From the NCBI GenBank assembly GCA_910585595.1, contig CAJUET010000002.1, forward strand, positions 135,418 to 199,417: a DNA stretch of 64,000 bases, read 5' to 3'. The stretch comes from an uncultured Christensenella sp. (GTDB taxonomy: Bacteria; Bacillota; Clostridia; Christensenellales; Borkfalkiaceae). The position numbers and the translations under genes are program-made. Shown here piece by piece: positions 38,202-62,688 of this stretch. The notes below the pieces were generated by a model, which saw nothing but the letters and a program-made list of their open reading frames with translations, did no database searches and was not told the origin of the DNA. How positions within the stretch are numbered: position 1 is the first letter of the stretch; each line of letters opens with the position of its first letter.

Positions 38202-38278
38202 TGGTTGAGGTGACGTGACTTGAACACGCGACCTCTTGGTCCCTAACCAAGCGCGCTACCAAACTGCGCTACACCTCA
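38202..38278 (-). tRNA. tRNA-Pro with anticodon AGG (A34)
   Basis: Hand-folded 77-nt cloverleaf with encoded CCA: TGAGGTG-TA-GCGC-AGTTTGGTA-GCGC-G-CTTGG-TTAGGGA-CCAAG-AGGTC-GCGTG-TTCAAGT-CACGT-CACCTCA-A-CCA. The architecture closely parallels B. subtilis tRNA-Pro(UGG) except for A at position 34. Confidence 0.85.
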
Positions 38279-38487: not shown

Positions 38488-39687
38488 TTATCTTCTTATG
38501 ATTTCGCAATTTTCAGGGAACGCGCCTTCCGCCACTTCGCAGTCATCCGAGATAACAACGCGTTTAAGACTTTCGCAAAAATGAAACGCTGCTTCGCCGA
38601 TATAATCTACTCCCTGCGGTATTTTGATATCCGAAAGCATTTCACAGCCGTAGAACGTGTGACGTTCTATTTCCGTTACGTCGTCGGGTATTTTTATACT
38701 TTTCAGACTTTTACAATCGGAAAACGCAAATTCGCCTATTTGGCTCACGCTTTCGGGAATTTCCAAACGGTCGAGACTTTTACAGTTCAAAAAAGCGCTT
38801 TTGCCGATTTGCGTTATGCCGTCGGGTAATTTGATCTCGTTCAGATTTTCGCACCAGGCAAACGCATTCTCTCCCATTTGCGTTACGTCAAGCGGAATAT
38901 CTATGCGCGCAACGTTTTTGCAACAGGCAAATGCGTCCTCTCCGATTTGCGTGACGCCGTCGGGAACGGTATACGCTTTAACGTCGCGCCCCTCTGGCAT
39001 TTTTACGATCCGACGCATATCTTTGCTGAACAATACCCCGTCTCTGTCGCAAAAATTCCTGTTGTTTTGATCGACGGTGATCGTTTCAAGGCTGTCGCAG
39101 CAGACGAACGCGCCCCTTCCGATTTGCGTCACGCTGCCCGGTATTTTAATACGCACAAGACTTTTACAGCCGTAAAACGCGCTTTCGCCTATATAAAGCA
39201 CGCTATCGGGAATTTCGACACCTGCAAGATTTTTACAATAGTGAAATGCTCTTTCGCCGATTTGGATGACGGTATCGGGAATTTCCACGTTTTCAAGACC
39301 GGCGCAATAACGGAACGCCCTTTCGCCGATTTGTGTTACGTCATTTGGAATATGATAATTTGCAATATCAGATCCTTCGGGCATCTTGATGATTCGACGC
39401 ATATCCTTGCTGAACAATACCCCGTCTATATCGCAATAATATTTGTTGTTCTCATCAACGTTAATACTTTTCAGACTTTCACAGCCGTTAAAAGCGTTTA
39501 TCGCGATTTGCGTTACGGAAGCAGGTATTTCCAAACTGTTAAGACTGCTGCAACCGCTGAACGCACCTTTATTTAACCGTGTTAGAACACCCATATTTAT
39601 ATAGGGTTGAGGGTTCTCCAAGATTTTGCCTTTCGGGGTGTTGTTGTAGCACAGTTCTCGTAAATGTAAACGGCAAAAAATCATCAC
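38488..39687 (-). CDS. BspA-type leucine-rich-repeat (LRR_5) protein without recognisable signal peptide
   Basis: About 14 units of I.IP..VT.IG..AF..C..L. The first ~30 aa are non-repeat and non-hydrophobic. Confidence 0.75.
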   Translation of the reverse strand: MMIFCRLHLRELCYNNTPKGKILENPQPYINMGVLTRLNKGAFSGCSSLNSLEIPASVTQIAINAFNGCESLKSINVDENNKYYCDIDGVLFSKDMRRIIKMPEGSDIANYHIPNDVTQIGERAFRYCAGLENVEIPDTVIQIGERAFHYCKNLAGVEIPDSVLYIGESAFYGCKSLVRIKIPGSVTQIGRGAFVCCDSLETITVDQNNRNFCDRDGVLFSKDMRRIVKMPEGRDVKAYTVPDGVTQIGEDAFACCKNVARIDIPLDVTQMGENAFAWCENLNEIKLPDGITQIGKSAFLNCKSLDRLEIPESVSQIGEFAFSDCKSLKSIKIPDDVTEIERHTFYGCEMLSDIKIPQGVDYIGEAAFHFCESLKRVVISDDCEVAEGAFPENCEIIRR

Positions 39688-39892: not shown

Positions 39893-40195
39893 ATGAAAAA
39901 AGTAGTTTACTCAATAACAAAGGTAAACAAAGACGAGAAGTTGAAAGGTGTAGGTTATCTGGTTGAAGGTAACTTACTTATCCCCTCTACTTCCAGCAAA
40001 GGTAACGCTTATATAAGAGTATTTGAAGATGTTACCGAAAAATGCAAAGCCGTAAAAGACACGGATAACGAGTTCAAAGGTTACGTTACGGTCGCTTACG
40101 AAAATATCCACGTATTCAATAAAGAGAAAAATCATTACGATACATTGGATTACGTAGAAACAACCTATTATATATGGTTCAAATACATTGATTGA
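39893..40195 (+). CDS. hypothetical protein (100 aa)
   Basis: GGAGGA RBS 8 nt upstream of the ATG. First gene of the block. Confidence 0.6.
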   Translation: MKKVVYSITKVNKDEKLKGVGYLVEGNLLIPSTSSKGNAYIRVFEDVTEKCKAVKDTDNEFKGYVTVAYENIHVFNKEKNHYDTLDYVETTYYIWFKYID

Positions 40196-40206
40196 GGTGC
40201 TTGAAA

Positions 40207-40437
40207 ATGTTTGAATATGATTTCTTTGACGGTGATCACTTTATCACGTTCGATATAGTTGAAATAGATGATGATGACGAAACGGTTACGGTAGCAATAT
40301 CTAATCAAGGTCGTATAACGCACGATACTTTCAATTTATTTGAAGATGAAGCATTAAAAGACATTTGCGAAAATCGTTACTTTGAATTTGGCTTATATCA
40401 AGACAAAATTTACATAAACGATTTTGAGTGCTTATAA
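40207..40437 (+). CDS. hypothetical strongly acidic protein (76 aa)
   Basis: ATG 40207 after GAGGTG RBS. Contains DIVEIDDDDETV and FEDEALKD tracts. Confidence 0.6.
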   Translation: MFEYDFFDGDHFITFDIVEIDDDDETVTVAISNQGRITHDTFNLFEDEALKDICENRYFEFGLYQDKIYINDFECL

Positions 40438-40449
40438 GGGGTATTTCAA

Positions 40450-40566
40450 ATGGACGAAATGACTTACATGGAAATAATGAAGCAAGACTATCCGAAAGAC
40501 TTTGCCGATGATGACGAATTTATATCGGCACTGTTAGATTGGTGCGAAAACAAGGAGGACAGATAA
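40450..40566 (+). CDS. hypothetical small acidic protein (38 aa), below the track cutoff
   Basis: MDEMTYMEIMKQDYPKDFADDDEFISALLDWCENKEDR. Its TAA overlaps the next ATG (ATAATG). Confidence 0.45.
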   Translation: MDEMTYMEIMKQDYPKDFADDDEFISALLDWCENKEDR

Positions 40567-41030
40567 TGAACGTATTTATTGGCGGTTCTATCAGCTTTGA
40601 CTATCTCGACTATACCATAACGGACGAGTTAGACAAGTATATGAACGGTGAACTTGAAATCTTTGTAGGTGATGCTTACGGAGTAGATAAGCTCGTTCAG
40701 AAGTATTTGGATAAAAACGGGTATCGCAACGTAACGGTCTATGCAAGTAACGGACGAGCAAGAAATAATATCGGGCTTTGGAAAGTAAAAGCTATTGAAG
40801 TTCCGAGCGACGTTTACGGCAGAGAGTTCTATACATATAAAGACTTTGCAATGAGTACCGACTGTAATTTCGGCTTTATGATATGGGACGGAAAAAGCAG
40901 AGGCACGCAAGCGAACATACTGCGTTTAATCAATATAAATAAGGGCGTGAATGTATATCTCCCCTACCTTCGTCAAATGAAATCTATCAACGATTATAAA
41001 GACTATAAAAAACTTATGGAGGAAATATGA
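40566..41030 (+). CDS. SLOG-superfamily (DprA/LOG/YpsA-like Rossmannoid) protein
   Basis: Start at ATG 40566 (MNVFIGGS). VGDAYGVDKLVQKYL ... VTVY ... FMIWDGKSRGTQANI pattern resembles DUF1273/DUF2493-type SLOG proteins. Confidence 0.5.
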   Translation: MNVFIGGSISFDYLDYTITDELDKYMNGELEIFVGDAYGVDKLVQKYLDKNGYRNVTVYASNGRARNNIGLWKVKAIEVPSDVYGREFYTYKDFAMSTDCNFGFMIWDGKSRGTQANILRLININKGVNVYLPYLRQMKSINDYKDYKKLMEEI

Positions 41031-41578
41031 ACAGAGTTGCAATGGTAATTGGCTCGTGGGGTTCGTACAACGAATGTAACGAACGAGCGTTAGGCAGTCA
41101 ATGGCTGGACTTCGACGATTACGACGATTGGGACGAAATCGTAGAAGAACTTAAAAAAGAAGGCTTTGAGCTGGATGGCGTCGACGAAGAACTATTTGTG
41201 CAGGACATCGAGGGCGTTCCTACTTCAAGCACCGATTGGGATAACACGCACCCCAAAGAGATATTTGAGCTTATGAAAAAGTCCGGCGTTCTGGACAATG
41301 AATATAAATACGAGCTTATGGAAGCGTACTGCGAGGTTAGATCGTTCAATGAATGGTCTGACCTCGTTTCAGATTACGAAGAAAATTGGGATAGAGATAT
41401 TGTCTTTTACAAGAATAAGACAATGCTCGACGTGGCTTATGAAATTATAGACGAATGTTACAACTTGGAAAAGATGCTTGGAAATCTTGCCAGCTATTTC
41501 GACTATAACGCATTTGCAAGGGATTTGAGTTACGACGGATACACGGAAACGTCAAACGGCGTGATTGAAATTAGATAA
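41027..41578 (+). CDS. ardA: antirestriction protein ArdA
   Basis: Aligns by eye along its whole length to Tn916 Orf18/ArdA: N-terminal GSWGSYNE..LGSQWLDF, central LFVQDIEG, C-terminal LDVAYEIIDE...YFDYNAFARDLSYDGYTETSNGVIEI. Very acidic. Confidence 0.85.
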   Translation: MNRVAMVIGSWGSYNECNERALGSQWLDFDDYDDWDEIVEELKKEGFELDGVDEELFVQDIEGVPTSSTDWDNTHPKEIFELMKKSGVLDNEYKYELMEAYCEVRSFNEWSDLVSDYEENWDRDIVFYKNKTMLDVAYEIIDECYNLEKMLGNLASYFDYNAFARDLSYDGYTETSNGVIEIR

Positions 41579-41602
41579 AAAATATAAGGAGGTTTTGGAA
41601 AA

Positions 41603-41878
41603 ATGGACTTTACTGTTTTACACAAGGGTAAGACATACTGTTTGAACACCGCCGACGAATTATACATATTCGGGTTGGGTATTGAAATGGGCATTGAAGA
41701 AAAACTGCAAACGGATATTATAACATTCATTGATTTTATCCGACAATGCCATAAAACAGACTGTTGCAATGCCCCGTTAAAGCCGTTTACTACCTTTATA
41801 ACCGATTGGTGGAACGAGTTTCACAACAAAGACAAGATATTTATAGTAAACAAATTTTACGAAATAAAAAATCAATAA
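41603..41878 (+). CDS. hypothetical protein (91 aa)
   Basis: AGGAGG RBS, co-directional in the block. Confidence 0.55.
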   Translation: MDFTVLHKGKTYCLNTADELYIFGLGIEMGIEEKLQTDIITFIDFIRQCHKTDCCNAPLKPFTTFITDWWNEFHNKDKIFIVNKFYEIKNQ

Positions 41879-41890
41879 GGAGTTATTAAA

Positions 41891-42316
41891 ATGGAAACCA
41901 ACACTCAACCTACCCTTCAAGAAAAGAAGAACAAAGCAATCGAGATTATGCACACTCTCGACATCTACAAGCCGTACATAGAAGGCTTTAAGCAATCCGA
42001 CAAGGTTTGCTTCTTTGAAGGCTTTGGCGGCTTTTGGGTTTATCAAGAACCCGAAATAGAAGCCAAGATGCGTGAACTTGAAGAACAGTACAAATGCAAA
42101 GTTTACGCAATCACGCACGAATTTACCGACTTTGGGGAACTGTACGATTTCCTTATCGTAACGAACTATCCTGAAGAATGGGAAGATTCCGTTTACAGCG
42201 TAGGAAATAAACATACGGTATTTGCCTACGTTTGGAACAAGTCAGACGAAGATTGCAGCGAGTTCGGAAGCATTACCGTACAATCATTCGGTGGCGGTAT
42301 TCGGAGGGTTGCATAA
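41891..42316 (+). CDS. hypothetical protein (141 aa)
   Basis: AAGGAG RBS. The stop overlaps the next start. Confidence 0.6.
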   Translation: METNTQPTLQEKKNKAIEIMHTLDIYKPYIEGFKQSDKVCFFEGFGGFWVYQEPEIEAKMRELEEQYKCKVYAITHEFTDFGELYDFLIVTNYPEEWEDSVYSVGNKHTVFAYVWNKSDEDCSEFGSITVQSFGGGIRRVA

Positions 42317-42627
42317 TGAAGAAAGTATATATTGTACAATTCGATTGGGCAACTCCCGATGCAAGCGACGTTGACCTTTACGTTTACGATAGTTACGACA
42401 AGGCTTACGACAAATTCAAAGAACTTATATGCGCCGAGCGTAAACCCGAAAATTCGTGGGTTGGCGACGTTGAGTTCGATGACGAAGGCTATCCCGTTGA
42501 CGATCACTACGAGTTCGATTTCGAGGACAACAATTCGGGCGAATCCGAAGTTTGGTGGCACATTACCGATAAGAACGATTGGTATCAATACTCGAATATA
42601 GACTTGCTTGTTATGGAGGTTATGTAG
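42316..42627 (+). CDS. hypothetical highly acidic protein (103 aa), DNA-mimic candidate
   Basis: ATG 42316 overlaps the previous TAA. By hand count about a quarter of residues are D/E (e.g. VEFDDEGYPVDDHYEFDFEDNNSGESE). Confidence 0.6.
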   Translation: MKKVYIVQFDWATPDASDVDLYVYDSYDKAYDKFKELICAERKPENSWVGDVEFDDEGYPVDDHYEFDFEDNNSGESEVWWHITDKNDWYQYSNIDLLVMEVM

Positions 42628-42629
42628 TA

Positions 42630-42908
42630 ATGACAAAGAAAGAACTTTACGATATGACATTTAACGAAGCGGCAGAAAAGTTATGCGAAACAAATGACTG
42701 TATAACCACTTACGAAACGCTGAAATCGTTTGCTGTTATGAACGTAGAAAACGACAGCTTCAATGTGGCTATACATATACTCGAAGCGTTACGGTCATAC
42801 CCAGCCTATTATTACAATTACGATTATTCAATGGGTACGCTCGACACCCCTACTGCTCTGACATTACACGTCGATTTGGAAGATTACTGCGAGGAGGATC
42901 AATTATGA
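42630..42908 (+). CDS. hypothetical protein (92 aa)
   Basis: ATG 42630 after GGAGG. ATGA overlap with the next ORF. Confidence 0.55.
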   Translation: MTKKELYDMTFNEAAEKLCETNDCITTYETLKSFAVMNVENDSFNVAIHILEALRSYPAYYYNYDYSMGTLDTPTALTLHVDLEDYCEEDQL

Positions 42909-43150
42909 GAAACACGAAAGAAATTAAGCCCCTGCTTACCGCTATCTATTGCCTTAACCGTGTGGGCGAAAAAGACAAACAAATAGACCTGATTTGTGAT
43001 TATGCGTTCAGAAGATTATTCGGCGCTAACACGAACTTGCTGGCTATCGCTTGTATCGGACAGACAAAAGAAACTATCGAACAGCAAGTAAACGAATTAC
43101 TCAAATTAGATACCGAGTTCAATAAATATTTGGAGGAATACAAGAAATGA
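42905..43150 (+). CDS. hypothetical protein (81 aa)
   Basis: ATGA overlaps at both ends. Confidence 0.55.
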   Translation: MRNTKEIKPLLTAIYCLNRVGEKDKQIDLICDYAFRRLFGANTNLLAIACIGQTKETIEQQVNELLKLDTEFNKYLEEYKK

Positions 43151-43350
43151 ACGGATTTAAGACACAGGCTTATATAAGTTCTCTGAACAAGGGCTTAATT
43201 ACCCCGACACACAAAGACGAAATAACGGTGCTTGAAAAGGTCGGCGACAACGACTACATAGTAGATTATAAGGGCGTGCGCTGTCATGCCCTTTTTAATT
43301 GGTTTGTGTGTGCGTACTTCGCAGACGATTTATATAGGAGGGTAAACTAA
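43147..43350 (+). CDS. hypothetical protein (67 aa)
   Basis: Coupled to both neighbours. Confidence 0.5.
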   Translation: MNGFKTQAYISSLNKGLITPTHKDEITVLEKVGDNDYIVDYKGVRCHALFNWFVCAYFADDLYRRVN

Positions 43351-43979
43351 TGGGACAGTATTACAGAGCAATAGTCAAAAAGCAAAACAAGCGCAACGTC
43401 GTATATAACCGCTATGTTATGAAAGACGGCAAGCCCAAATATATGATGGCTAAACTTACCGAGCATTCGTGGTGGCGAAACGATTTCGTAAATGCAGTAT
43501 GCCTTGCAATATACGAAAGCAAAGAAAAGCGCCGTGTTGCTTGGATTGGCGATTATGCCGAAAGTTATTTAGAAAGTATCGGCAAAGACAATTTCAACGG
43601 CTTGAAGCAAAAGCAAATAAAAAGGCTTTGCAATCAGACTTGGGATTGCGAAGGCGTTGCAGTTGAGCCTACCGAATTTACGTTAGACGGAAAGTTTATC
43701 GTAAATCACACGAAGAAAGAATATTTCACCGGCACGCAATACTTTGAAAACGGTTGTATGCGTTCTCAAGAATATGGCGATTGGTGTATGCACCCTCTAC
43801 CGCTATTGACTTGCATCGGCAACGGATTGGGCGGTGGCGATTACCACTCTCCCACTGCCGACAGTTCGGAAGAATATATCGGCGCATGGGCTTGGGACGA
43901 AATAAGCATAGAAGATAAAGCACCTACGGACTACAACGAAATTGAACTTATATTCAAAGAAAAAGGATGGGAAGATTGA
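43350..43979 (+). CDS. hypothetical protein (209 aa)
   Basis: MGQYYRAIV...LTEHSWWRNDFVNAV...VAWIGDYAE...LGGGDY. No family recognised. Confidence 0.6.
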   Translation: MGQYYRAIVKKQNKRNVVYNRYVMKDGKPKYMMAKLTEHSWWRNDFVNAVCLAIYESKEKRRVAWIGDYAESYLESIGKDNFNGLKQKQIKRLCNQTWDCEGVAVEPTEFTLDGKFIVNHTKKEYFTGTQYFENGCMRSQEYGDWCMHPLPLLTCIGNGLGGGDYHSPTADSSEEYIGAWAWDEISIEDKAPTDYNEIELIFKEKGWED

Positions 43980-44689
43980 TGGAAAGCAATGAAATCTTGG
44001 AACAACTCAAAGCAAAAGGACTGCTAAAATTTAAGGCAGTAAATATCAGCGATAATAAGGCTTATAGGTGTTACATAGAAAGCGACGGTAACATATTTGT
44101 GTATGCTCACAATAAAAAGCGCTACGGCTGGCGCTTCAATGAAGAACAGTTTTTAATATGCTATACACCGTTAATACCTAACGATGAAAATTTGCAATGG
44201 AAAAAGCGACTGAAACGTGCCGTAAATCTCTGCCGTGAAAGCGGACTATGGGCGGAACTCGCTGTCGTATGGGACAACCTTTACAAATATGTTACGCTCG
44301 ACGAAAAAAGAAAGATTTACGATATGAGTTGGGATAATCGTGAAGCGACCATTGCCTACTGCAAAGAACACTACCCCTTTATGATCAAAACCGACAAAGA
44401 CGGTAAGGAATATCTCGACACGGATTATATATGGGAACTATCCCGTTGCGAACTCAAATCTATGTATTTCGGCTATAACAATACGGAAGAAAAAGAACAA
44501 ATCCGTAAAGCCATTTCTGAACATAGACAATACACCATACCGAGAATACGAACTACTTACGACGTGAGCTTCAGTTATAACCCCGAACGCAACCGAGCTT
44601 TCTACAGTGAAGAATATAAAGACTGCGGTAACGGACACTACTATCTTGCGCTTAACCACAGCACGGCGGTATTCTGCGAGGACGATTAA
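43979..44689 (+). CDS. hypothetical protein (236 aa)
   Basis: TGATG overlap with the previous ORF; an alternative ATG lies at 43967. Ends ...CGNGHYYLALNHSTAVFCEDD. Confidence 0.6.
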   Translation: MESNEILEQLKAKGLLKFKAVNISDNKAYRCYIESDGNIFVYAHNKKRYGWRFNEEQFLICYTPLIPNDENLQWKKRLKRAVNLCRESGLWAELAVVWDNLYKYVTLDEKRKIYDMSWDNREATIAYCKEHYPFMIKTDKDGKEYLDTDYIWELSRCELKSMYFGYNNTEEKEQIRKAISEHRQYTIPRIRTTYDVSFSYNPERNRAFYSEEYKDCGNGHYYLALNHSTAVFCEDD

Positions 44690-44695
44690 ACGGTA

Positions 44696-44941
44696 ATGCC
44701 TATGACGTCAAACAATGAATACGGATACACAGTACGATATAAGCAGGTAGGTTCAAGTAAATGGAAAGTTTATCTCGTAACGAACTCATACGACAGCGCA
44801 TTATGGAGTGTGCGTTGGTACGAGCGAGATCCGCCCAAGAACAGAATTACAGGTAAAGCGATTGAAAACGTAATATGGGATATATTCCCGATAAAAACGC
44901 TATTCGAGTATAAATGGCGTTGGCGTGGTTGTCCGTTCTGA
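44696..44941 (+). CDS. hypothetical protein (81 aa)
   Basis: Co-directional ORF, Trp/Arg-rich. Confidence 0.5.
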   Translation: MPMTSNNEYGYTVRYKQVGSSKWKVYLVTNSYDSALWSVRWYERDPPKNRITGKAIENVIWDIFPIKTLFEYKWRWRGCPF

Positions 44942-44999
44942 ATACGGATAACCGCGTCTTTTCTTTTATCTACAAAATTCAAATAAGGAGTTATACACA

Positions 45000-45206
45000 A
45001 TGAAAATCTCAACAGACAAACTTTACTATCTTTGCAACAAGTATCAATGGTTCACTAACGGCGACTGCCGACAATACGACTTGTTATTCAAACTAAACAG
45101 AGAGGGCGCACCACTCGAAAAATTGGCGACTATTATTTGGTTTTGCTCTTTCGGTTACAACGAACAAGACATTCTCAAAATCTTAAAACAGGAGGCAGAT
45201 TTATAA
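45000..45206 (+). CDS. hypothetical protein (68 aa)
   Basis: AAGGAG RBS. Its TAA overlaps the next ATG. Confidence 0.55.
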   Translation: MKISTDKLYYLCNKYQWFTNGDCRQYDLLFKLNREGAPLEKLATIIWFCSFGYNEQDILKILKQEADL

Positions 45207-46306
45207 TGACTACTCTCAACCTTACCGCAAGCGGTAAAGCGCAAGAACTTATCCTTGCCTACTTGCAAGCAAACGCAAGCGACGTTCTTGCCGAAAAGAT
45301 TAACAGCGGTACGCCGTTCACGAAAGACGGCAAACAACTCATCAACAAGAAAACGCTCGACGGGTTTATGACCTTTGCGAGCGGTGAAGCAAAGAAGCTC
45401 GCCGAGAAAAACGCAAGATCGGCGTGCGTAGAAGATACCGTCGTTTACGGCTGGGCTATCCACTACTTTGAAGAAGATAACATCGAAGGCAAACTTTTCA
45501 ATGAGGACGGCACAGAGTACAAATCGGTTGTGAAGACTACACCAAGAACCACAACGAAACCCGTTAAGGTCGAGCCACCCAAACCGAAACAACAGCAAGC
45601 GTCCTTGTGGGATATGATTGAGCAATCGGATAAAAAGCCCGTAAAAGTTCAAGCCGACGACCACGAAGTAATAGACGATACTGACGATGACGGCGAAGAA
45701 CTGAATAACGATTACACTCCGGAAGAACTTGCCAAAGAAGCCGAAGAAATTAACGAGCCGACTGTAGAAGAAAAGCCTGTTCAATTATCGAAGCCCTATC
45801 CCCCTTTCTATACACAATATTTGGAACTTTCGGAACACACCGACGGTATCGTTCTTATCCGCTTGGGCGACTTCTACGAAGCGTTTGACAGCGATTCCGA
45901 AACATTAGCCGAAGAACTCAATATGACGCTCACAAGCCGTCAAATAACCGATGACGAGCGTGTGCCTATGATTGGCTTCCCCTTTCACTCGGTTGACGCT
46001 TACATAGCCAAAATACGCAAAAATCACGACGTCGTAATTATTGAATCAAACAGCGACATTAAAACGCTTGCACAGATAGTAACCGCAGACGGAAAAGCCG
46101 TTGACAGCGGAACAGGCGAAGTTCTTGACGATGATATAGAAGAACTTACAGAAGCAGAAATGCGACAGTTCGACGGCGACATAGGCGAGCCAAAAACAGT
46201 TGATGCGCAAGACGATGAAAGAACTCCCTACTCCCTTTCTTCGTTTGACAAAGAAACGATGATTTATCTTTACGATTTGCTCGACGGCAAATTGGATATA
46301 GCGTGA
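45206..46306 (+). CDS. fusion protein: N-terminal PcfK-like (AcrIIA9-family-like) domain, acidic/Pro-Lys linker, C-terminal MutS domain I (mismatch-binding domain)
   Basis: Start at ATG 45206 (AGGAGG RBS). N-terminal ...VVYGWAIHYFEEDNIEG, as in PcfK-like proteins. The C-terminal PPFYTQYLELSEHTDGIVLIRLGDFYEAFDSDSETLAEELNMTLTSR...VPMIGFPFHSVDAYIAKIRKNHDVVIIE aligns by eye with E. coli MutS residues ~12-95, including GDFYE. Confidence 0.7.
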   Translation: MTTLNLTASGKAQELILAYLQANASDVLAEKINSGTPFTKDGKQLINKKTLDGFMTFASGEAKKLAEKNARSACVEDTVVYGWAIHYFEEDNIEGKLFNEDGTEYKSVVKTTPRTTTKPVKVEPPKPKQQQASLWDMIEQSDKKPVKVQADDHEVIDDTDDDGEELNNDYTPEELAKEAEEINEPTVEEKPVQLSKPYPPFYTQYLELSEHTDGIVLIRLGDFYEAFDSDSETLAEELNMTLTSRQITDDERVPMIGFPFHSVDAYIAKIRKNHDVVIIESNSDIKTLAQIVTADGKAVDSGTGEVLDDDIEELTEAEMRQFDGDIGEPKTVDAQDDERTPYSLSSFDKETMIYLYDLLDGKLDIA

Positions 46307-46316
46307 GGTGAACATT

Positions 46317-47648
46317 ATGACGATTGAAGATGCTGAAAAGTTGACGATACCAAAGTATCTGACAGAGCGCATTCGCAAAGCTGATTTTAAGAAACACCCG
46401 ACTCCAGAAAAATCCATTAGGTTCTACGCCTATCTTGCATTATGGAAACGCAAAGAGCTTATAAAGATTACCGTTGCAGCAAAGCACTATCGCAGAAAAC
46501 TGTATATGAAGATAGTTGCTATTCACGGCTTGCACGCACAAAGATGCTATATCAAAGATTTGGAATATAACTATATGGGCGCAATGGGCTATCGTGTAGG
46601 CTGGTTTGATGAAGGCATACAAAAATACTATAAATGGTACGAGCGCGGCTGGTGCTGGGCAGACGATAAATATTACGATCCCTACGCACCTATCGTAAAT
46701 TATGAAGTCATAGATAAACTGCCTGAATACAAATACAGCGCTTACAAGCAATACGGCGGTATTGACTTATTCAAATACTTGCGTGTTTACGAGAAATATC
46801 CGCAAGCGGAAATGTTCGTGAAATTCGGTTTATCGACGTATGCGTTAAGCAAGCAGTTATTGGAAAAATCAGCAAAGGACAAGCAGTTCCGTAAATGGCT
46901 GATTAGAAACAGCAGTGAGTTGCATGGTAGGTACTACTATGTAACCACCATTCTATCTTCTTATAAAACGGGCAAACCGTTAGACCATATACAGCAGCTC
47001 GAAAGACAGAAGAAAAGCTTTTGCAATAAAAACGGAAGCTACCCCGAATTACGGCGTTTCTTCAAAGGACAGACGATTAAGTTTTTGGAATACATACAAA
47101 AGCAAGATACGAGCATCGCAACATACAACGATTACTTCAATGCTTGCAATTATCTGGGCTTGGATATGAGCGAAGATAAAAACGTATTCCCCCACAACTT
47201 CAAGCATTGGCACAATATGCGCATAGACCAATATCACACGGCAAAGGCAATGAAAGACGCCGAAGAACGCAAAGAGCTGTATGCGAAGTTCGCCAGCGTT
47301 GCCGAAAAGTATTTGAGCTTACAGCGAAACAGAGAAGCGTTTATCGTCATTATAGCAAGGAGTCCAAGCGATTTGATGCACGAGGGCGATACCCTGCATC
47401 ACTGCGTGGGACGAATGAATTACGACCAAAAATTTGCGCGTGAAGAAAGCCTTATTTTCTTTGTCCGAAACGCATCCGAACCCCATATTCCATTCGTTAC
47501 AATGGAATATTCACTCAAGAACAAAAAGATATTACAATGTTATGGCGAACACGACCACAAACCGAACGACAATGTTTTGGAGTTCGTAAACAAAAAATGG
47601 CTACCGTTCGCAAACAGACAATTAAAGAAAATACAAATAGCGGCATAA
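46317..47648 (+). CDS. PcfJ-like protein
   Basis: ATG 46317 after GAGGTG. The C-terminal EGDTLHHCVGRMNYDQKFAREESLIFFVR...PFVTMEYSL...ILQCYGEHDHKP resembles the PcfJ family. Follows the PcfK-like gene as in pCF10-type elements. Confidence 0.6.
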   Translation: MTIEDAEKLTIPKYLTERIRKADFKKHPTPEKSIRFYAYLALWKRKELIKITVAAKHYRRKLYMKIVAIHGLHAQRCYIKDLEYNYMGAMGYRVGWFDEGIQKYYKWYERGWCWADDKYYDPYAPIVNYEVIDKLPEYKYSAYKQYGGIDLFKYLRVYEKYPQAEMFVKFGLSTYALSKQLLEKSAKDKQFRKWLIRNSSELHGRYYYVTTILSSYKTGKPLDHIQQLERQKKSFCNKNGSYPELRRFFKGQTIKFLEYIQKQDTSIATYNDYFNACNYLGLDMSEDKNVFPHNFKHWHNMRIDQYHTAKAMKDAEERKELYAKFASVAEKYLSLQRNREAFIVIIARSPSDLMHEGDTLHHCVGRMNYDQKFAREESLIFFVRNASEPHIPFVTMEYSLKNKKILQCYGEHDHKPNDNVLEFVNKKWLPFANRQLKKIQIAA

Positions 47649-47667
47649 CCGCAAAGGAGTAAAAATT

Positions 47668-47991
47668 ATGAACAATTATTATAGAGTTACAGGTTACTGC
47701 GAGCAAAAAGATTTTTGCTTTATTATGGACTGCTACGGTATGTATGAGAAGTTATGGCAATTCAGCTCTATGCTCATACAAAAAGGCTTAAAAGTCTTGG
47801 AGGTCGGTAACGACACAAAGTTTATGGACGGCAATATAGACCGTATAGACGAAAACAACGAAAAAGTATTTTTACGAGCAAACGCCGAAGGCAAGCCCGT
47901 ATACACCACCCAGACGATTAACGGCATTACATATAAAGCCGTAAAAGTTGCCGACAAAATCTACATACCCGATAGAACGCAAACCGTATAA
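47668..47991 (+). CDS. hypothetical protein (107 aa)
   Basis: AAGGAG RBS. Last gene before the terminator. Confidence 0.55.
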   Translation: MNNYYRVTGYCEQKDFCFIMDCYGMYEKLWQFSSMLIQKGLKVLEVGNDTKFMDGNIDRIDENNEKVFLRANAEGKPVYTTQTINGITYKAVKVADKIYIPDRTQTV

Positions 47992-48005
47992 CCGAATACA
48001 AAGTC

Positions 48006-48041
48006 AAAGCCCGGATTCCTTTCGGAGTCTGGGCTTTTTTT
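48006..48041 (+). terminator. rho-independent terminator closing the plus-strand block
   Basis: 14-bp stem AAAGCCCGGATTCC / GGAGTCTGGGCTTT (two G-U pairs), 4-nt loop, TTTTTTT. Confidence 0.8.
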
Positions 48042-48044
48042 GTG

Positions 48045-48284
48045 TTAATCGTCATCTTCTAAATCATTGAAGTAATCTCTATCAAAAAACTCTGACAAGG
48101 TAATGCCTGCACCCTCGCAAAAACTCTTGATAGTTGTTACTTTCGGACACTTAGTTCTTCCTTTCATTAAATCATAAAGAGCCGAAGGCGATTTGCCACC
48201 GTTTAGACACGCCTTACAAATATTCTTACCTTTTTCTTCGCAGATCTCCTCAATACGTTTTAAGATTGCTTCGTTCGTTTTCAT
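48045..48284 (-). CDS. XRE/Cro-type HTH regulator (79 aa)
   Basis: Start moved to ATG 48284 (AAGGAG RBS). KNICKACLNGGKSPSALYDLMKGRTK...TIKSFCEGAGITLSEFF HTH pattern. Confidence 0.7.
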   Translation of the reverse strand: MKTNEAILKRIEEICEEKGKNICKACLNGGKSPSALYDLMKGRTKCPKVTTIKSFCEGAGITLSEFFDRDYFNDLEDDD

Positions 48285-48362
48285 AATCGTGAAACTCCTT
48301 ATCGTAATTCCACGATTAGTATATGAAATTTGAAAAATTATCTCTCGTGGAGTTCCACGATA

Positions 48363-48391
48363 TTGACTTGCTACTGCAATTTTGCTATAAT
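48363..48391 (+). promoter_or_regulatory. strong sigma-70 promoter flanked by 14-bp direct repeats (operator candidates)
   Basis: TTGACT, 17 nt, TATAAT. GGAGTTCCACGATA occurs at 48349-48362 and again at 48399-48412. A third core copy, TTCCACGAT, is at 48308-48316. Confidence 0.65.
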
Positions 48392-48415
48392 ATTTCACGG
48401 AGTTCCACGATAAAT

Positions 48416-48964
48416 ATGGTTGTGTGTTTTTTAGGTCATAGAAAAATAACTAACGCCGAACAAATTAAAACTCGGCTAATCGAAATCGTTTCAAATCTGA
48501 TCTCAAACGGAGTAGATACTTTTTTATTCGGCAGCAGAAGTGATTTTGATATCCTATGTTGGGAGGTCGTTACCGATCTGCAAGAGCAATGCCCCCACCT
48601 TAAACGGATAAGCTATAATGCACACCACGAAACTGCCTTCACTTCTAAAGAAGAACGAGAAAGCTTTGAAAAGTTTTTCTCTCAAATGGTTAAGCACGAA
48701 GTTCATTATACTGACTACGAAGAATCCGTCAGTTCCAAGAAATCCCTTAACGCAAACAAAAACGCATACATAATGCGCAATCAAGAAATGATCGACAATA
48801 GCGACGTATGCGTGTTCTACTATAACAAAGACTATCTACCGCCAAAGCGGAAAGCAGCCAATAAATTTCTTCCCGACTATCAACCTAAAAGCGGTACAGC
48901 AATCGCTTACGCTTACGCTGTTCAAAAGAAGAAGCAAATTTATAATACATTCATTGAAGTATAA
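48416..48964 (+). CDS. SLOG-family protein (DUF1273/YpsA-like)
   Basis: Start at ATG 48416 (MVVCFLGHRKI...). NGVDTFLFGSRSDFDILCWEVV..LQEQCPHLKRISY ... RNQEMIDNSDVCVFYYN ... SGTAIAYAYAVQKKKQIYN matches the GHR...G..G.D...A......P.....SGT pattern of YpsA-like proteins. Confidence 0.7.
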   Translation: MVVCFLGHRKITNAEQIKTRLIEIVSNLISNGVDTFLFGSRSDFDILCWEVVTDLQEQCPHLKRISYNAHHETAFTSKEERESFEKFFSQMVKHEVHYTDYEESVSSKKSLNANKNAYIMRNQEMIDNSDVCVFYYNKDYLPPKRKAANKFLPDYQPKSGTAIAYAYAVQKKKQIYNTFIEV

Positions 48965-48975
48965 AAGGCTTAAAT

Positions 48976-50259
48976 ATGTTTAGAAAAATTCAAAAACCAA
49001 TGTCCGTATTCACAATCAGTATATTACTGTTTTTAATCGTGTTAAGCACTTGTACTACTTTTCTACAAATTCATACAGCACAGGCTCAAACATTTGAGCA
49101 ACATATTCCTACCTTTGGTCTATACTGCAAAGATGAAACCATTATACAATCTGGCACTGTTAAATACGATTTATCGGATGCCGAAACCATTGCGCAAGGA
49201 AAAAGCTCAATACAATCAAGTTATCAAATTGCGGCAGTTAATCGCACAGTTGAATTTGTAATACCTTTTATATCGTCAGCAGAAAATGCCCCACTCTTTT
49301 CTATTAAAGCAAATGAGCAAAAAATCGACTGCTCAATTTGGTACGGAAACCCCTTCTTTTCGTCCGATGAAGATACAGACTTTGAAAGCCTTATTGACGA
49401 TACATATTCAACCGATATTGATAAAGCCATAAAAGGAACGCTCTATACAATAACACCAGACAATGAAACGATTTCGATTGAATTATCTTTTGCCGAAAAC
49501 AAACGAAGTAGTTTCATATATGAAACCTCTAATCAATTATCGGCATCAAGTTCAGCCAGCGGAACTTACACTTGGACTTTGAAAAACGCTTTTATAAAAC
49601 CCGAATATAAATTTTTCATACTTGGCGAAAATTCCAACCACTCTTTTTCATGCAGCAGTGAATATCAAACGGAAACAATAACTTGCAAAGATTACATTGA
49701 TCGTCAATATGAATACTTGAAAGAACTTTACGATGAATACGGGATTGCCGTTGATTTTCTCTATTCAATGTTTAATCTGCTATTGCAAAACAAGCAAAGC
49801 GTAGTTTATGACGATTTATTCTTTAATTCTATAAATACACAAAGATATAACGTATATAAGTTTTCTATACAGCTCGATACGACTACACTCATCAATTACG
49901 AACTTCCTGTAAACATACAACGCAATTTTGCTTTTACTCCAACGATATATTTGCTTGAGCAAAAGAATTTAGGAAACTACCCTATATTCTACATTGCTGA
50001 ACTAAACAATGAAATACCCTATATCATTGAATCAAGCGTCAAATTCATTAAAGACGGACTTACATATAGTGCCGAAACCGCCGACGATTATTACTTCGTT
50101 TTCAGTTCGTCCGAAAAGCCCCAAAGTGCCACGTTCCCTACTAACAGCAACGATAATAAGGCTTTGATTATCTGCTGTTCTGTTATAGGTGGAATCGCAT
50201 TTATCGCCTTAATTGTTCTGATAGGAATTGTAATACATCAAAAGGTTAAACACCGCTAA
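48976..50259 (+). CDS. secreted protein with N-terminal signal/anchor and C-terminal TM anchor, unknown function
   Basis: 427 aa. N-terminal hydrophobic segment ending AQAQ. C-terminal LIICCSVIGGIAFIALIVLIGIVI followed by HQKVKHR. Confidence 0.65.
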   Translation: MFRKIQKPMSVFTISILLFLIVLSTCTTFLQIHTAQAQTFEQHIPTFGLYCKDETIIQSGTVKYDLSDAETIAQGKSSIQSSYQIAAVNRTVEFVIPFISSAENAPLFSIKANEQKIDCSIWYGNPFFSSDEDTDFESLIDDTYSTDIDKAIKGTLYTITPDNETISIELSFAENKRSSFIYETSNQLSASSSASGTYTWTLKNAFIKPEYKFFILGENSNHSFSCSSEYQTETITCKDYIDRQYEYLKELYDEYGIAVDFLYSMFNLLLQNKQSVVYDDLFFNSINTQRYNVYKFSIQLDTTTLINYELPVNIQRNFAFTPTIYLLEQKNLGNYPIFYIAELNNEIPYIIESSVKFIKDGLTYSAETADDYYFVFSSSEKPQSATFPTNSNDNKALIICCSVIGGIAFIALIVLIGIVIHQKVKHR

Positions 50260-50449: not shown

Positions 50450-51484
50450 TTAGTTACTTTTACGCATTTGCGCTATTACTTCGGGGCTTACCCTTCCCAT
50501 ATATAAGCCCTCGTCCCAGCAGTTGAAATCGTCGAATAATAGTAGTTTCTTATCCTCTTGCCCTATTGTGCATACAATGTCCTCGTCCATTATGTCGGAT
50601 ATAAAGTATTGGTACAGCCCCTTGCTGTACACTATTTTTTCGCCTGTCTTTTCTATATATTTCATTAAATAAGCGAGTGCCTCGCCATATAAGTTTGGAT
50701 CTAATACTTTGAAATCGTTGCGCCCGAATCGTTCCGCAAAATAGGTATTTAGCGTTATCGTCTGCATGGTATGCGACACCGTGCTGAAATCGGTCTTTTC
50801 CACAAGTTCGCCGACCATAGCATCGTCCGGCACGTTGAATAAACCGTGAAAATGTAACCGCTTCTTTTCGGGTGATCGTTCCCATACGCCCATATACTTC
50901 CATCCCTGTCTATATGCAAGCAATGATAATTTGTTCTTCAGCTTCTTTTTGAATGTTTCTTCGGTGTGCTTTTTGTCATCGTATGTAAACGTGCAGAAGT
51001 AATTAAACTTTGCCAAATTAGCTTTTCGCACCATACGAACACGCCTACTCACTATGTTCCTATGCTTCCTTTCAAACCCTAAATCGACATACCACTTTAA
51101 CTGCTCTATACTGTCAAAATACGCCTCCATACCTTCCATAACTTTGAAATGCCGCTGCGCTCTCGGCAAGTCAATGTATTTGTTATACAATTCTTCAAAC
51201 AACTCCTTCCGCGTCATCTGACGTTCTCGTAGCGGCTGTGTATTGGCTTCTAACGGCTCGTTTGGTGATTCCGCTATTACTTGCTCGTCAGCTTCGCCCC
51301 CGTCGCTTTCGCAAGAAATTAAAGGCTCCGGCGCCTTATCGGTGTCGAAGCCTTCTTCTTTTGCTTCTGCGACGGTTATTACTTCCTCTATAGGTTTCGG
51401 ACGGTAACGCTGTGGACGTTCCGTATGCGGTATCGCTATGTAATGCGATCCGTCAAAATACACTTTGGTTTCTCCGAATGGCAT
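50450..51484 (-). CDS. rolling-circle replication initiator (HUH endonuclease, two-tyrosine type)
   Basis: Motif I YFCTFTYDD, motif II RLHFHGLFNV (HUH), motif III LAYLMKYIEK (Y-x3-Y as in phiX174 A / gokushovirus VP4-type Reps). Confidence 0.75.
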   Translation of the reverse strand: MPFGETKVYFDGSHYIAIPHTERPQRYRPKPIEEVITVAEAKEEGFDTDKAPEPLISCESDGGEADEQVIAESPNEPLEANTQPLRERQMTRKELFEELYNKYIDLPRAQRHFKVMEGMEAYFDSIEQLKWYVDLGFERKHRNIVSRRVRMVRKANLAKFNYFCTFTYDDKKHTEETFKKKLKNKLSLLAYRQGWKYMGVWERSPEKKRLHFHGLFNVPDDAMVGELVEKTDFSTVSHTMQTITLNTYFAERFGRNDFKVLDPNLYGEALAYLMKYIEKTGEKIVYSKGLYQYFISDIMDEDIVCTIGQEDKKLLLFDDFNCWDEGLYMGRVSPEVIAQMRKSN

Positions 51485-51518
51485 TTTGACTTTAACGAGG
51501 GATAACCGTCTTATAAAG

Positions 51519-51731
51519 TTATTTACGCCGCTTGTTATACTCGGGCGTATTCTTATAAAGTAGAGCGTACTCGAAATTGCCGTGTACTTTCATTGCTCGC
51601 TTGAGCGCCTTTTTATCACCGTTCTCGGCGGCTTCACGCAATTCATTCTCGCTGTAATGATAGCCACTCTTGAGTTCGCTTACGGAATATTTATGCGCCA
51701 ATTTCTTGTGCCTTAAAGTGAAAAATCCCAC
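51519..51731 (-). CDS. hypothetical basic protein (70 aa)
   Basis: GTG start with AAGGAGGT RBS embedded in the end of the upstream gene. Confidence 0.45.
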   Translation of the reverse strand: MGFFTLRHKKLAHKYSVSELKSGYHYSENELREAAENGDKKALKRAMKVHGNFEYALLYKNTPEYNKRRK

Positions 51732-51733
51732 GC

Positions 51734-52306
51734 TTACTTACCTCCTTTTTTTAATTGTCTTTGTTGCTTTTTATCAAGTTTGCGCTCACGCTTCGCCTGC
51801 TTTTGGACAAGTCTTTGTTCTCGTATAGCTTGCTTTTTAGCAAGCTTACGCTCACGCTTCAACTGTTTTTTGGCAAGTTTCTGTTCTCGTATAGCCTGCT
51901 TTTTAGCAAGCTTAAGCTCGCGCTTCGCTTGCTTTTGGGCAAGTCTTTGTTCTCGTATAGCCTGCTTATTAGCGAGTTTGGGTTCGCGCTTCTTTTGCAA
52001 CTTATCGAGCTTGGCTTGCTTTTTGGCGAGTTTATTATTTCGCTTTTCTTGCTTCTTTTCAAGTTTCAAACGGCGCTTTTCTTGCTTGACTTTCACTTGC
52101 TGTTCTTTGAGCTTTTTCTTTTGATACTGCCGATCTTCTTTGTCGATTTTCTTAAACGATTTCTTCATATTCTTAAAAATATAATTGAGTATTTTATCGT
52201 TGAATTTGTCCGGCACGAAGTCGGCGGTATCGAGCGTGTGCGAAAAGGTTTCGTAATACTTAATAAGGCAAGCGTTTATGAGTTTGTTTTTGTTGTAGTT
52301 AATCAT
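51734..52306 (-). CDS. lysine/glutamine-rich coiled-coil repeat protein (190 aa)
   Basis: C-terminal half is 22-aa repeats LAKKQAIREQ(K/R)LA(K/Q)KQ(L/A)KRE(R/L)K. ATGA overlap with the Zot-like gene. Confidence 0.65.
   Translation of the reverse strand: MINYNKNKLINACLIKYYETFSHTLDTADFVPDKFNDKILNYIFKNMKKSFKKIDKEDRQYQKKKLKEQQVKVKQEKRRLKLEKKQEKRNNKLAKKQAKLDKLQKKREPKLANKQAIREQRLAQKQAKRELKLAKKQAIREQKLAKKQLKRERKLAKKQAIREQRLVQKQAKRERKLDKKQQRQLKKGGK
51779..51976. repeat. three exact-phase 66-bp tandem repeats (coding), with degenerate copies up to about 52090
   Basis: Units at 51779-51844, 51845-51910 and 51911-51976 each end in AGC(A/G)AG. They lie inside ORF 51734..52306. Confidence 0.85.
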
Positions 52307-53124
52307 GCGACTTTACCTCTCTTTTGATAGTATCCTTCGGGCAACTCGTCGTCGTTTTCTTCGAGATAACGGATATAGCCTTCAAGCGTTTGCTCGGTAG
52401 GCTCTGACTGCTGATAATCGAAGTCCTCATTAAAGTGTCCTTGATAGAACTTCGGCTTGCAGCATTGACTATCATAGCATTCAAATACATTGTAGTCCGC
52501 TGTAACCACTTCTACCGTATAGCAACTCTTATCCTGTTTGCCACTCGACATATACTTGTCGAATAAGCTGCTGTTCTCTATACGGCGAATATGCCACGTC
52601 AGGCGGCAAGGTCTGCCGAAATCGTTGTATTCTTTGTCTAACTTTATTATCTCTATGAACTGCGACAATTCCCGAATGTTGACGTCGATTAGCATTGGTC
52701 TTTGCGTGTCAAGATAAACGTCCAAATCGTTATGCCCGTGCTGTTCATACCATCTACTTTGCCAATCCGGAAAATACATAGATAATCTGCTATTAAGGTA
52801 CTTTTGCGCTTCCGTAATGCAGATAACCTCATAAGGTAAATTAAAATGCGTTTGCACAAACGGATTGGCAAAGCCCAGACGGTAAGGGTTAATTCGGCGG
52901 CTATATCGGGGGCTGTACCGATAGCGCTTAAACGTCATATCGTAGTTAGCCGAAACACAGTGAATCGGCACAGTCCCCAAGTTTTCAAAGCCGCTATTTC
53001 TTTTCCCTATAATCTCACGAGCCATAGTCCGATTACGAACCTTGTCAAACGCATAACCGTTTGCAACGTGCGTCATAAAACAGGTCTTGCCCGTTCGCGG
53101 CGGTGCGAAAATTATCGTTATCAT
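52303..53124 (-). CDS. Zot/gpI-like P-loop NTPase (filamentous-phage assembly ATPase family), no TM segment seen
   Basis: Walker A IIFAPPRTGKT at the extreme N-terminus. VICITEAQKYLNSR (Walker B position). WYEQHGHNDLDVYLDTQRPMLIDVNIRELS parallels M13 gpI WFLHARKLGWDIIFLVQDLSIVDKQARSAL. Confidence 0.65.
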   Translation of the reverse strand: MITIIFAPPRTGKTCFMTHVANGYAFDKVRNRTMAREIIGKRNSGFENLGTVPIHCVSANYDMTFKRYRYSPRYSRRINPYRLGFANPFVQTHFNLPYEVICITEAQKYLNSRLSMYFPDWQSRWYEQHGHNDLDVYLDTQRPMLIDVNIRELSQFIEIIKLDKEYNDFGRPCRLTWHIRRIENSSLFDKYMSSGKQDKSCYTVEVVTADYNVFECYDSQCCKPKFYQGHFNEDFDYQQSEPTEQTLEGYIRYLEENDDELPEGYYQKRGKVA

Positions 53125-53128
53125 AGGC

Positions 53129-55510: not shown

Positions 55511-55522
55511 AGATAATTCTCC

Positions 55523-56050
55523 TTATAAAATTTCGATAATTTGCAAGCGCATACCGTTGTCCGAAAAGTATTGTTCCAAGAAGGACGCATTTTCGTTTCC
55601 GGTAGTCGCAAGCGTGAGTTGAGTTTTGCCGCTTAAAAATTTGACGGATATTTTCATAACCGAGCGATTTACGATTTGCCCGTCTGTATTGTAAAAGTCG
55701 AGATTGACTGTTGCATACACCGAGCCTGCTTTAATTTCGCAGTTGAGTAAAACGTAATCGTTCAGCACTACGTTGTACTTTTTGTTTTCGCCGTCGAAGT
55801 TCTCCGTTTTGAGCAAGTCTTTCTCGAAATAGTAGGTGTCCGTGTCGTCGTATAGGTCGTGATAGAAAACGACGCTCGTTGACGTGTACTTAAAACTTTC
55901 CTGTGAGAAACGGTTGCTTATGTCGATACTGCCGTTGACGTAACTTTCGGCTTTGATTTCCTTATACAGTTGCAAGCCGCAGAATACGCCGGCAACGATA
56001 AGCGCGAAGGCGAGAATATACAAAATAACCAATCCTATGATTTTCTTCAT
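55523..56050 (-). CDS. N-terminally anchored protein (175 aa), unknown
   Basis: MKKIIGLVILYILAFALIVAGVFCGL TM helix. ATGA overlap with the upstream gene. Confidence 0.6.
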   Translation of the reverse strand: MKKIIGLVILYILAFALIVAGVFCGLQLYKEIKAESYVNGSIDISNRFSQESFKYTSTSVVFYHDLYDDTDTYYFEKDLLKTENFDGENKKYNVVLNDYVLLNCEIKAGSVYATVNLDFYNTDGQIVNRSVMKISVKFLSGKTQLTLATTGNENASFLEQYFSDNGMRLQIIEIL

Positions 56051-58883: not shown

Positions 58884-59279
58884 TTACAAAAAATTTTTGA
58901 GTTTTTTATAAATTCGTGCCAATCTATTGCTGATACTGCACACCGCAACTCCGTCGCTTTCCGCTATCTCGGACACCGTTTGTCTTTCAACGAACAAGCG
59001 ATTGAGAAGGCTTTGTTGCGTAGGTAACAGTTGCGAAATTGCTTCCTGCAATCGCTCGTTTTCCATACCGCCGAAAATCTCATCGAAATTATATTCGTCC
59101 GTATATGACGGCTCGACGTTCATTTCGGTAAGCGTTTCCAAAGAAACGTGCCTGCGAGTTTCACGGCGATTCCCGTACTTTTCTTCCTTGTCCATTTCAA
59201 TTAAAAGGTCGTAAAGCTCGTCCTCTACTTCCACAACACTTTTAGTTCCGTCCGCAAATTTGTAAGTATAAGTTTTCAT
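58884..59279 (-). CDS. sigma-70 region-4-like HTH protein (Tn916 Orf7-like small sigma/regulator)
   Basis: C-terminal LPTQQSLLNRLFVERQTVSEIAESDGVAVCSISNRLARIYKKLK resembles sigma-70 region 4. Confidence 0.6.
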   Translation of the reverse strand: MKTYTYKFADGTKSVVEVEDELYDLLIEMDKEEKYGNRRETRRHVSLETLTEMNVEPSYTDEYNFDEIFGGMENERLQEAISQLLPTQQSLLNRLFVERQTVSEIAESDGVAVCSISNRLARIYKKLKNFL

Positions 59280-59415
59280 ATTTTGACTCCTTGAATTTGA
59301 TAGTGAAATCCGCAGAGCCGAGTTTTCCGCAAACTAAAAGACGGCATAGAAACGATTGAATTTGTTTCCATTGCCGTCTTGCGGTCTGCGGATATTATTG
59401 AGTTGTTACGGCGAT

Positions 59416-59568: not shown

Positions 59569-59570
59569 AT

Positions 59571-62687: not shown

Positions 62688-62688
62688 A

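Follow-up and report, generated by a model that had tools for sequence, protein, structure and literature searches.

Detached copies of the mismatch-binding domain I of MutS (MutS-I) have been described computationally in the polyvalent proteins of conjugative elements and phages from Bacteroidetes and Firmicutes, and about 80% of the polyvalent proteins with MutS-I also carry ArdC-N (Iyer et al. 2017, PMC5512222). According to the same study, polyvalent proteins are the only place where MutS-I is found apart from MutS itself; its authors suggested that the domain recognises distorted, single-stranded or mismatched DNA of the incoming element. A second relevant group is the PcfK/AcrIIA9 family (PF14058), which includes PcfK of pCF10 and AcrIIA9 (Uribe et al. 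2019). Here we describe a gene in which these two domain types are joined. It lies on an integrated mobile element in a 64,000-nucleotide stretch of DNA (the window) from an uncultured Christensenella sp. (assembly GCA_910585595.1, contig CAJUET010000002.1, positions 135,418 to 199,417). The fusion gene (45206..46306, plus strand) encodes 366 amino acids plus a stop codon. The protein runs from a PcfK (AcrIIA9-family) domain through a disordered linker, with a motif resembling those that bind the beta sliding clamp, and a complete MutS domain I to a family-specific tail.

The MutS domain I is encoded at 45803..46072 (plus strand; residues 200-289), within a folded unit of about residues 195-300. 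Pfam MutS_I (PF01624) matches residues 200-289 over profile positions 2-93 of 113 with 70.3 bits (E 2.1e-19; curated cut-off 20.6 bits), and a phmmer search of PDB sequences aligns residues 198-287 with residues 10-101 of E. coli MutS (E 4e-12). In an AlphaFold2 model of the fusion protein built on 113 relatives, residues 195-300 are modelled confidently, with a predicted local distance difference test (pLDDT) score of ~94. The top 50 Foldseek matches of this model in the PDB are MutS/MSH domain I exclusively; the best is E. coli MutS (1wbb_A), with a root-mean-square deviation of 1.9 Å over 81 columns at 36% identity. In the phmmer alignment, F223-Y-E225 (45872..45880, plus strand) falls on F36-Y-E38 of E. 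coli MutS, the mismatch-contacting Phe-x-Glu. Across the 113 relatives, which are 51-86% identical to the window protein, four residues of the surrounding G-D-F-Y-E never change (G221, D222, Y224 and E225), and the fifth, F223, is kept in at least 90%. Further MutS-I signature residues (T241, R245, R252, P254, G257, P259 and H261) are invariant or nearly so. The conservation of G-D-F-Y-E across the 113 members indicates that the mismatch-contacting motif is under selection.

Nothing of MutS beyond domain I is present. A Pfam scan of the fusion protein matched none of the connector, core/lever, clamp or ATPase domains, and the NCBIfam models for full-length MutS score far under their cut-offs (74.8 bits vs 480, and 71.8 vs 641.7). 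The protein thus resembles bacterial MutS1 (E. coli MutS, PDB 1e3m; B. subtilis MutS) in its domain I fold and Phe-x-Glu, and, like Firmicutes MutS, has within a flexible stretch a motif that resembles the QxS[LF]F type. Unlike MutS1, it is without the connector, core/lever, clamp and ATPase domains and the dimerisation region, and so cannot signal to MutL or hydrolyse ATP. Judged by its domain content, the fusion protein does not count as a MutS but as a PcfK-family member to which a MutS domain I has been added.

The initial annotation, made from the letters and open reading frames (ORFs), had anticipated much of this. It had read the protein as a PcfK/AcrIIA9-like N-terminus joined by an acidic, Pro/Lys-rich linker to a MutS domain I that retains Phe-x-Glu and is followed by no other MutS domain, and it had proposed Pfam searches and a superposed AlphaFold model as checks. 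Both profiles score above their curated cut-offs, the model superposes on MutS domain I, and the linker, the retained motif, the absence of further MutS domains and the mobile-element setting were all borne out. Its placement of MutS-I in the C-terminal ~85 residues was mistaken, as the segment is internal and a tail of 77 residues (290-366) follows.

The N-terminal globular domain (45206..45535, plus strand; residues 1-110) is assigned to the PcfK/AcrIIA9 family by its Pfam match and is modelled at a pLDDT of ~90. The PF14058 profile matches residues 47-94 with 33.3 bits (E 6e-8; curated cut-off 27 bits), covering just profile positions 31-73 of 139. Closer relatives support the assignment: residues 1-136 share 55-60% identity with stand-alone PcfK-type proteins in viral contigs (L091-L095), and a stand-alone protein that is 39% identical over residues 1-138 (P0134, an ORF of L099) matches PF14058 strongly (E 1.9e-15). 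Modelled alone, the domain reached a pLDDT of 84.5 and a predicted template modelling score of 0.72. NF-YB histone-fold chains were considered as relatives of the domain and rejected, their sequence matches being not significant (E 0.036). A tblastn search of PLSDB plasmids with the N-terminal domain gave zero matches.

The fusion protein resembles the PcfK/AcrIIA9 family in more than this homologous domain. In both, a Lys/Pro-rich linker leads to a motif of the Q-x-[SD]-L-F type and a PcfJ gene lies directly downstream. Ordinary PcfK members have 116-260 residues and stop at the motif, whereas the fusion lineage adds MutS domain I and the tail. The linker of the fusion protein (45536..45787, plus strand; residues 111-194) is Pro/Lys-rich and then acidic, and is disordered in the model (pLDDT <50). 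Within it lies a conserved island, PKPKQQQASLWDMI (45578..45619, plus strand; residues 125-138), with a mean column identity of 0.79 vs 0.48-0.50 in the remaining linker, and the model places a short helix at residues 135-140. The core of the island, Q131-A-S-L-W135 (45596-45610, plus strand), resembles the beta-clamp-binding motif Q-phi-x-L-F, and the corresponding peptide of the window protein is PKPKQQQASLWDMIEQ. Among the 113 aligned members Q131 never varies, while at least 90% keep S133 and at least 90% keep D136. The pattern across the fusion family is Q-x-S-L-[F/W]-D: the window copy reads QASLWDMI, and relatives read QASLFDM, QLSLFDML, QMSLFDLM and QFSFFDML. A looser form, Q-x-[STD]-[LIMFV]-[FWLY], occupies the linker position in 120/120 homologues listed. 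The published consensus for beta-clamp binding is Q-phi-x-L-F, specifically QL[S/D]LF; the clamp-binding motif of B. subtilis MutS is QLSFF and that of PolC is a C-terminal QLSLF. In the cellular MutS of E. faecalis and of Clostridia, Q[LIV]S[LF] stands ~30-40 residues before the C-terminus.

The same motif recurs in PcfK proteins that have no MutS domain. We assessed 120 stand-alone PcfK proteins (P0134-P0253) of 116-199 residues, all matching PF14058, and found the strict motif within the last 16 residues of 90, where shuffled sequences gave an expectation of 0.12. Their consensus, Q-[LIM]-S-L-F-D-L-L-G, matches the beta-clamp-binding consensus. Stand-alone PcfK proteins with a C-terminal motif of the Q-[LIM]-[SD]-L-F-D-L type are also found at L091-L104 and L113, and the prototype PcfK of pCF10 (L126:17208-17984) ends in KEVDEQIDLFECV, that is, QIDLFECV. 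Since stand-alone PcfK proteins including that of pCF10 carry it, the motif can be regarded as an ancestral feature of PcfK, and the comparison places MutS-I and the tail as additions made behind it in the fusion lineage. We infer that the linker motif is a candidate docking site for DnaN, the host beta sliding clamp. We found no paper that mentions a C-terminal clamp-binding-like motif in PcfK/AcrIIA9 proteins.

Behind MutS-I, the tail (46073..46303, plus strand; residues 290-366) carries the motif E-M-R-x-F-D-G-D-I-x-E-P and ends in a conserved amphipathic helix, FDKETMIYLYDLLDGKLDIA (46244-46303, plus strand; residues 347-366). In the AlphaFold2 model residues 300-366 are mostly disordered, with the terminal helix at 349-358. 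A phmmer search of 1.84 billion protein representatives with the tail alone returned just 13 matches: all were complete, truncated or fragmentary tails of the fusion family, apart from a single read-through product in which the tail is joined to PcfJ, so that no sharing with other protein families was found. By eye, the terminal helix (KETMIYLYDLL) looks like the MutS motif IEAMNLLYELK. Derivation of the tail from the MutS C-terminus is nonetheless not supported, as hhalign against 61 MutS C-termini gave 3% probability (P 0.013, 9 columns).

The gene is intact and sits in a conserved setting. A ribosome-binding site, AGGAGG (45190..45195, plus strand), lies 10 nucleotides 5' of the ATG, and this ATG shares 1 nucleotide (TAATG) with the TAA of a conserved 68-residue ORF directly upstream (45000..45206, plus strand), to which the fusion gene is translationally coupled. 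A pseudogene or chance ORF was ruled out because the reading frame is intact, a ribosome-binding site is present and conservation is strong across the family. Downstream, a PcfJ-family gene (PF14284, E 2.6e-29; 46317..47648, plus strand) starts 10 nucleotides after the fusion stop, and PcfJ is invariably the next gene downstream of the fusion gene. Both belong to a co-directional block (39893-50259) that runs from small ORFs through ArdA, an antirestriction gene near its head (41027..41578, plus strand), further small ORFs, the 68-residue ORF, the fusion gene and PcfJ to a 107-residue ORF, a YpsA/SLOG-family protein (48323-48964, plus strand), which is kept across related elements, and a 427-residue protein. 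The fusion gene thus sits in an ArdA-led block of the 'establishment / anti-defence' kind, on a mobile element integrated in the genome of a gut Clostridia bacterium. At other chromosomal sites, relatives with 55-64% identity keep the order ArdA, 68-residue ORF, fusion gene, PcfJ, 107-residue ORF and Rep. A PcfK-PcfJ pair is also found in a tailed prophage, where replication genes such as Phage_rep_org_N immediately precede it, and pCF10 likewise carries one. PcfJ thus follows in ICE-like elements and tailed prophages alike, and PcfK-PcfJ is the core module. One variant of the element (L119:17195-17849) is a natural deletion without the fusion gene, PcfJ, the 107-residue ORF and YpsA, and with a partial gene for the 427-residue protein. 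It is otherwise colinear with the window element and offers a useful natural knockout.

The fusion architecture is widespread. More than 100 protein clusters (at 90% identity) have the same length, match both PF01624 and PF14058 and are 47-86% identical to the window protein; they come from gut and faecal metagenomes and from metagenome-assembled genomes of Clostridia. The initial annotation knew of no characterised fusion of this kind, and to the extent that we found no experimentally characterised member this stands. As a claim of novelty it was overstated, given the number of clusters and the earlier computational description of MutS-I outside MutS by Iyer et al. 2017 (PMC5512222). The literature gave us no paper mentioning AcrIIA9 together with MutS, and the sole paper found with both PcfK and MutS just lists them in a table. 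Two intermediates (P0122, L092) have the PcfK domain, motif and tail and lack MutS-I, and one representative (P0125) has a different N-terminus. An apparent protein with only MutS-I and the tail (P0127) proved to be an artefact, its PcfK part being broken by a frameshift and a stop (L121:3300-4300). A scan of genome contigs mostly returned genuine mutS, because one of the patterns was RLGDFYE, and the true relatives amounted to 4 loci only. One match in a phage collection, labelled 'Enterococcus phage' (H5), comes from an unverified record and represents the mutS-mutL locus of the host; similar Enterococcus and Listeria matches in that collection are probably host mutS-mutL loci too.

Like the polyvalent proteins, the fusion protein presents a detached MutS domain I on a mobile element, with GDFYE kept. 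With two globular domains it sits at the minimum of the 2-15 domain range of polyvalent proteins, and Pfam finds in it none of their typical partners (ArdC-N, peptidase, methylase, helicase). At 366 residues it is also unlike the giant proteins of this type. Three of these, with internal MutS-I, were seen in viral contigs at L105, L107 and L110; they have 1841-5144 residues and all keep GDFYE. Small stand-alone MutS-I proteins of ~105-125 residues (L103, L108, L109, L112) likewise retain GDFYE, consist of domain I without PcfK or tail, and belong to other lineages, with 31-41% identity to the MutS-I of the fusion. These small proteins lie on IMG/VR contigs, with Pfam E values down to 2.6e-26, and that of L112 ends in QPALF. 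The PcfK domain, the clamp-binding-like motif and the PcfJ neighbour of the fusion are not in Iyer et al. 2017 (PMC5512222). MutS-I on mobile elements was already known, and what is added here is the clamp-binding-like motif and the PcfK-PcfJ module, along with the ArdA-led operon.

The MutS-I of the fusion is nearer to cellular Clostridia MutS than to the sampled mobile-element copies. It shares 44-48% identity (84-91 bits) with domain I of cellular MutS from Clostridia/Negativicutes, a comparison set pre-selected by similarity, which bears on any reading of origin, and 37% with E. coli MutS. Against the four small stand-alone and three giant polyvalent copies the identity is 28-41% (43-67 bits). 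This difference suggests that the fusion lineage captured its MutS-I separately from a Firmicutes mutS.

How the parts might work together can be set out tentatively. We favour, with clear reservations, a clamp-tethered MutS mimic that would block or divert host mismatch repair (MMR) on element DNA. The linker motif would dock the protein on the host beta sliding clamp, and this docking would supply a topological hold on DNA in place of the clamp and lever domains of full-length MutS. The tethered domain I could then insert Phe223 wherever element DNA that has just been replicated or has just entered is mismatched or distorted. Host MutS needs the clamp site as well as the lesion, and a protein that occupies the two would act as a MutS mimic: it would block or divert what MutS/MutL do to the DNA of the element, which comprises anti-recombination and the nicking by MutL of mismatched or hairpinned stretches. 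Competition with host MutS at heteroduplexes had been one suggestion of the initial annotation, and in Firmicutes MutS depends on the clamp. The PcfK domain and PcfJ would contribute an effector activity of unspecified kind; alternatively, the same geometry might bring a PcfK/PcfJ activity to sites of mismatch or distortion. This reading draws on the conserved linker motif, which is of the type that Firmicutes MutS uses for beta-clamp binding, on what the domains are, on the selection acting on Phe-x-Glu, on the conserved operon and on the prediction of Iyer et al. 2017.

Several observations weigh against it. The full protein has a pI of 4.3, with 78 acidic vs 37 basic residues, and its MutS-I part a pI of 4.5. 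The window motif has W instead of F at position 5 (QASLW), and short linear motifs can serve partners other than the clamp. The PcfK-domain fold has no significant match in the PDB (best E 2.9) or BFVD (best E 1.8), and AcrIIA9, the PcfK prototype, is reported to bind SpyCas9, a different target. PcfJ gives little help: Pfam offers no clan clue to its function, and a 24-sequence profile found nothing among PDB sequences (best E 0.44). Site-specific integration needs no homeologous recombination, and an element of this kind has no obvious need for MMR inhibition. In the literature we found no experimentally characterised member of the fusion family. To our knowledge, an isolated MutS domain I is not established as a DNA binder and has little affinity alone.

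It is possible, though rather doubtful, that the protein instead helps replication or second-strand synthesis and does not interfere with MMR. MutS-I would bind irregular element DNA, such as hairpins, single-strand/double-strand junctions or primer ends, and the motif would recruit or retain the clamp and polymerase, promoting conversion or replication of the element. The generality of the clamp-binding-like motif among PcfK proteins and the position of the prophage PcfK-PcfJ pair straight after replication genes are in keeping with such a role, as is the rolling-circle-type HUH Rep (REP_ORF2-G2P) of the element, which makes single-stranded intermediates possible. However, no origin or structured-DNA target was found, and the strict retention of Phe-x-Glu suits contact with a base mismatch better than generic junction binding. 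In addition, natural variants exist without MutS-I or the whole module (P0122, L092, L119), which argues that the module is not essential for replication.

An anti-CRISPR role of the AcrIIA9 type, in which the PcfK domain binds and inhibits Cas9 while MutS-I and the clamp motif do no more than gather the protein at DNA, such as the R-loops or distortions that Cas9 creates, seems improbable to us. Some fusion-family members bear the NCBI name 'Cas9 inhibitor AcrIIA9 family protein', AcrIIA9 reportedly binds SpyCas9 and blocks both DNA binding and cleavage, and the gene lies within an ArdA-containing, anti-defence-type block. Yet AcrIIA9 homologues, which are numerous and often adjoin ArdA, hardly ever lie beside an Aca gene and are rare in genomes that carry II-A self-targeting spacers. 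AcrIIA7 and AcrIIA8, from the same screen as AcrIIA9, were later shown not to inhibit SpyCas9. A conserved clamp-type motif and an obligate PcfJ partner would also be unexpected for a simple Cas9 binder, and no Cas9 turned up in the annotated 35-64 kb of the window, where no search was aimed at it. Least probable is an acidic decoy that titrates a host factor (a nuclease, MutL, RecA-pathway proteins or a defence sensor recognising MutS-like surfaces) with a MutS-I that no longer needs DNA: the low pI, the excess of acidic residues and the neighbouring DNA mimic ArdA would fit, but the conservation of G-D-F-Y-E and of T241, R245, P254, G257, P259 and H261 fits retained DNA contact, and the known MutL contacts of MutS lie in its connector and core domains, not in domain I.

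The element that carries the fusion gene extends past the end of the window. Copies in other assemblies match the window only from ~39560 rightwards and differ in their left flanks, which places the left end of the element at ~39560. In one copy spanning this end (L084:1-4358), the left end lies directly against a gene for a VirB4-like ATPase (DUF87 / TraG P-loop), a junction that could be circular or an insertion into a conjugative element; another such copy is L083:1-1503. The DNA that separates the element from the housekeeping genes ArgS and YchF holds a tRNA-Pro gene (anticodon AGG; 38202-38278) and a gene for a BspA-type leucine-rich-repeat protein (38488-39687, minus strand). The G+C content falls from ~0.50 to ~0.42 near 38 kb and is already lowered in this tRNA-Pro/BspA region, and similar LRR_5 genes flank the element in some other assemblies. 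No right-end direct repeat matching the left end was found inside the window, and neither an integrase nor type IV secretion genes were seen in its annotated part (35-64 kb).

Beyond the ArdA-led block, a minus-strand block (50450-57453) holds the Rep, a 273-residue protein with a weak PHROG match to Zot-like filamentous-phage assembly ATPases, a 793-residue coiled-coil/Listeria-Bacteroides-repeat protein, and proteins of 175 and 468 residues with no assigned function. The block could be a transfer or morphogenesis module of the single-stranded-DNA type. It is followed by a minus-strand cluster of regulators (58884-61309) with a sigma-70 region-4 protein, an HTH_11 protein, a zinc-ribbon protein and a LexA-like S24 peptidase repressor; this cluster suggests SOS-type control of the element. 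A dndB-dndC(PAPS_reduct)-dndD-dndE phosphorothioation cluster lies at 62307-64000 and onward (L116:273-5147), the window ending inside dndD. In five independent samples the dnd genes lie on the right side of the element, and they therefore appear to be element cargo.

Mismatch repair is a main barrier to recombination between diverged DNAs and sets the mutation rate, and we know of no characterised, dedicated MMR-targeting protein from a natural mobile element. Gut Clostridia of humans and animals carry the fusion family in abundance. Its members are small and modular, with obvious point mutants (F223A, E225A, Q131A/L134A/W135A) and natural deletion variants, which makes the idea of a MutS mimic directly testable. 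Going further, it is possible but doubtful that the fusion is a natural MutS mimic riding the clamp, which shields element DNA from MMR or shuts MMR down, and that the whole PcfK/'AcrIIA9' family, in phages, in plasmids such as pCF10 and in integrative and conjugative elements, would be clamp binders for which the anti-CRISPR label is incidental. The clamp-binding-like motif found across PcfK proteins provides a handle on the real role of the widespread 'AcrIIA9 family', a role that matters because the companion proteins AcrIIA7 and AcrIIA8 have been shown not to inhibit SpyCas9.

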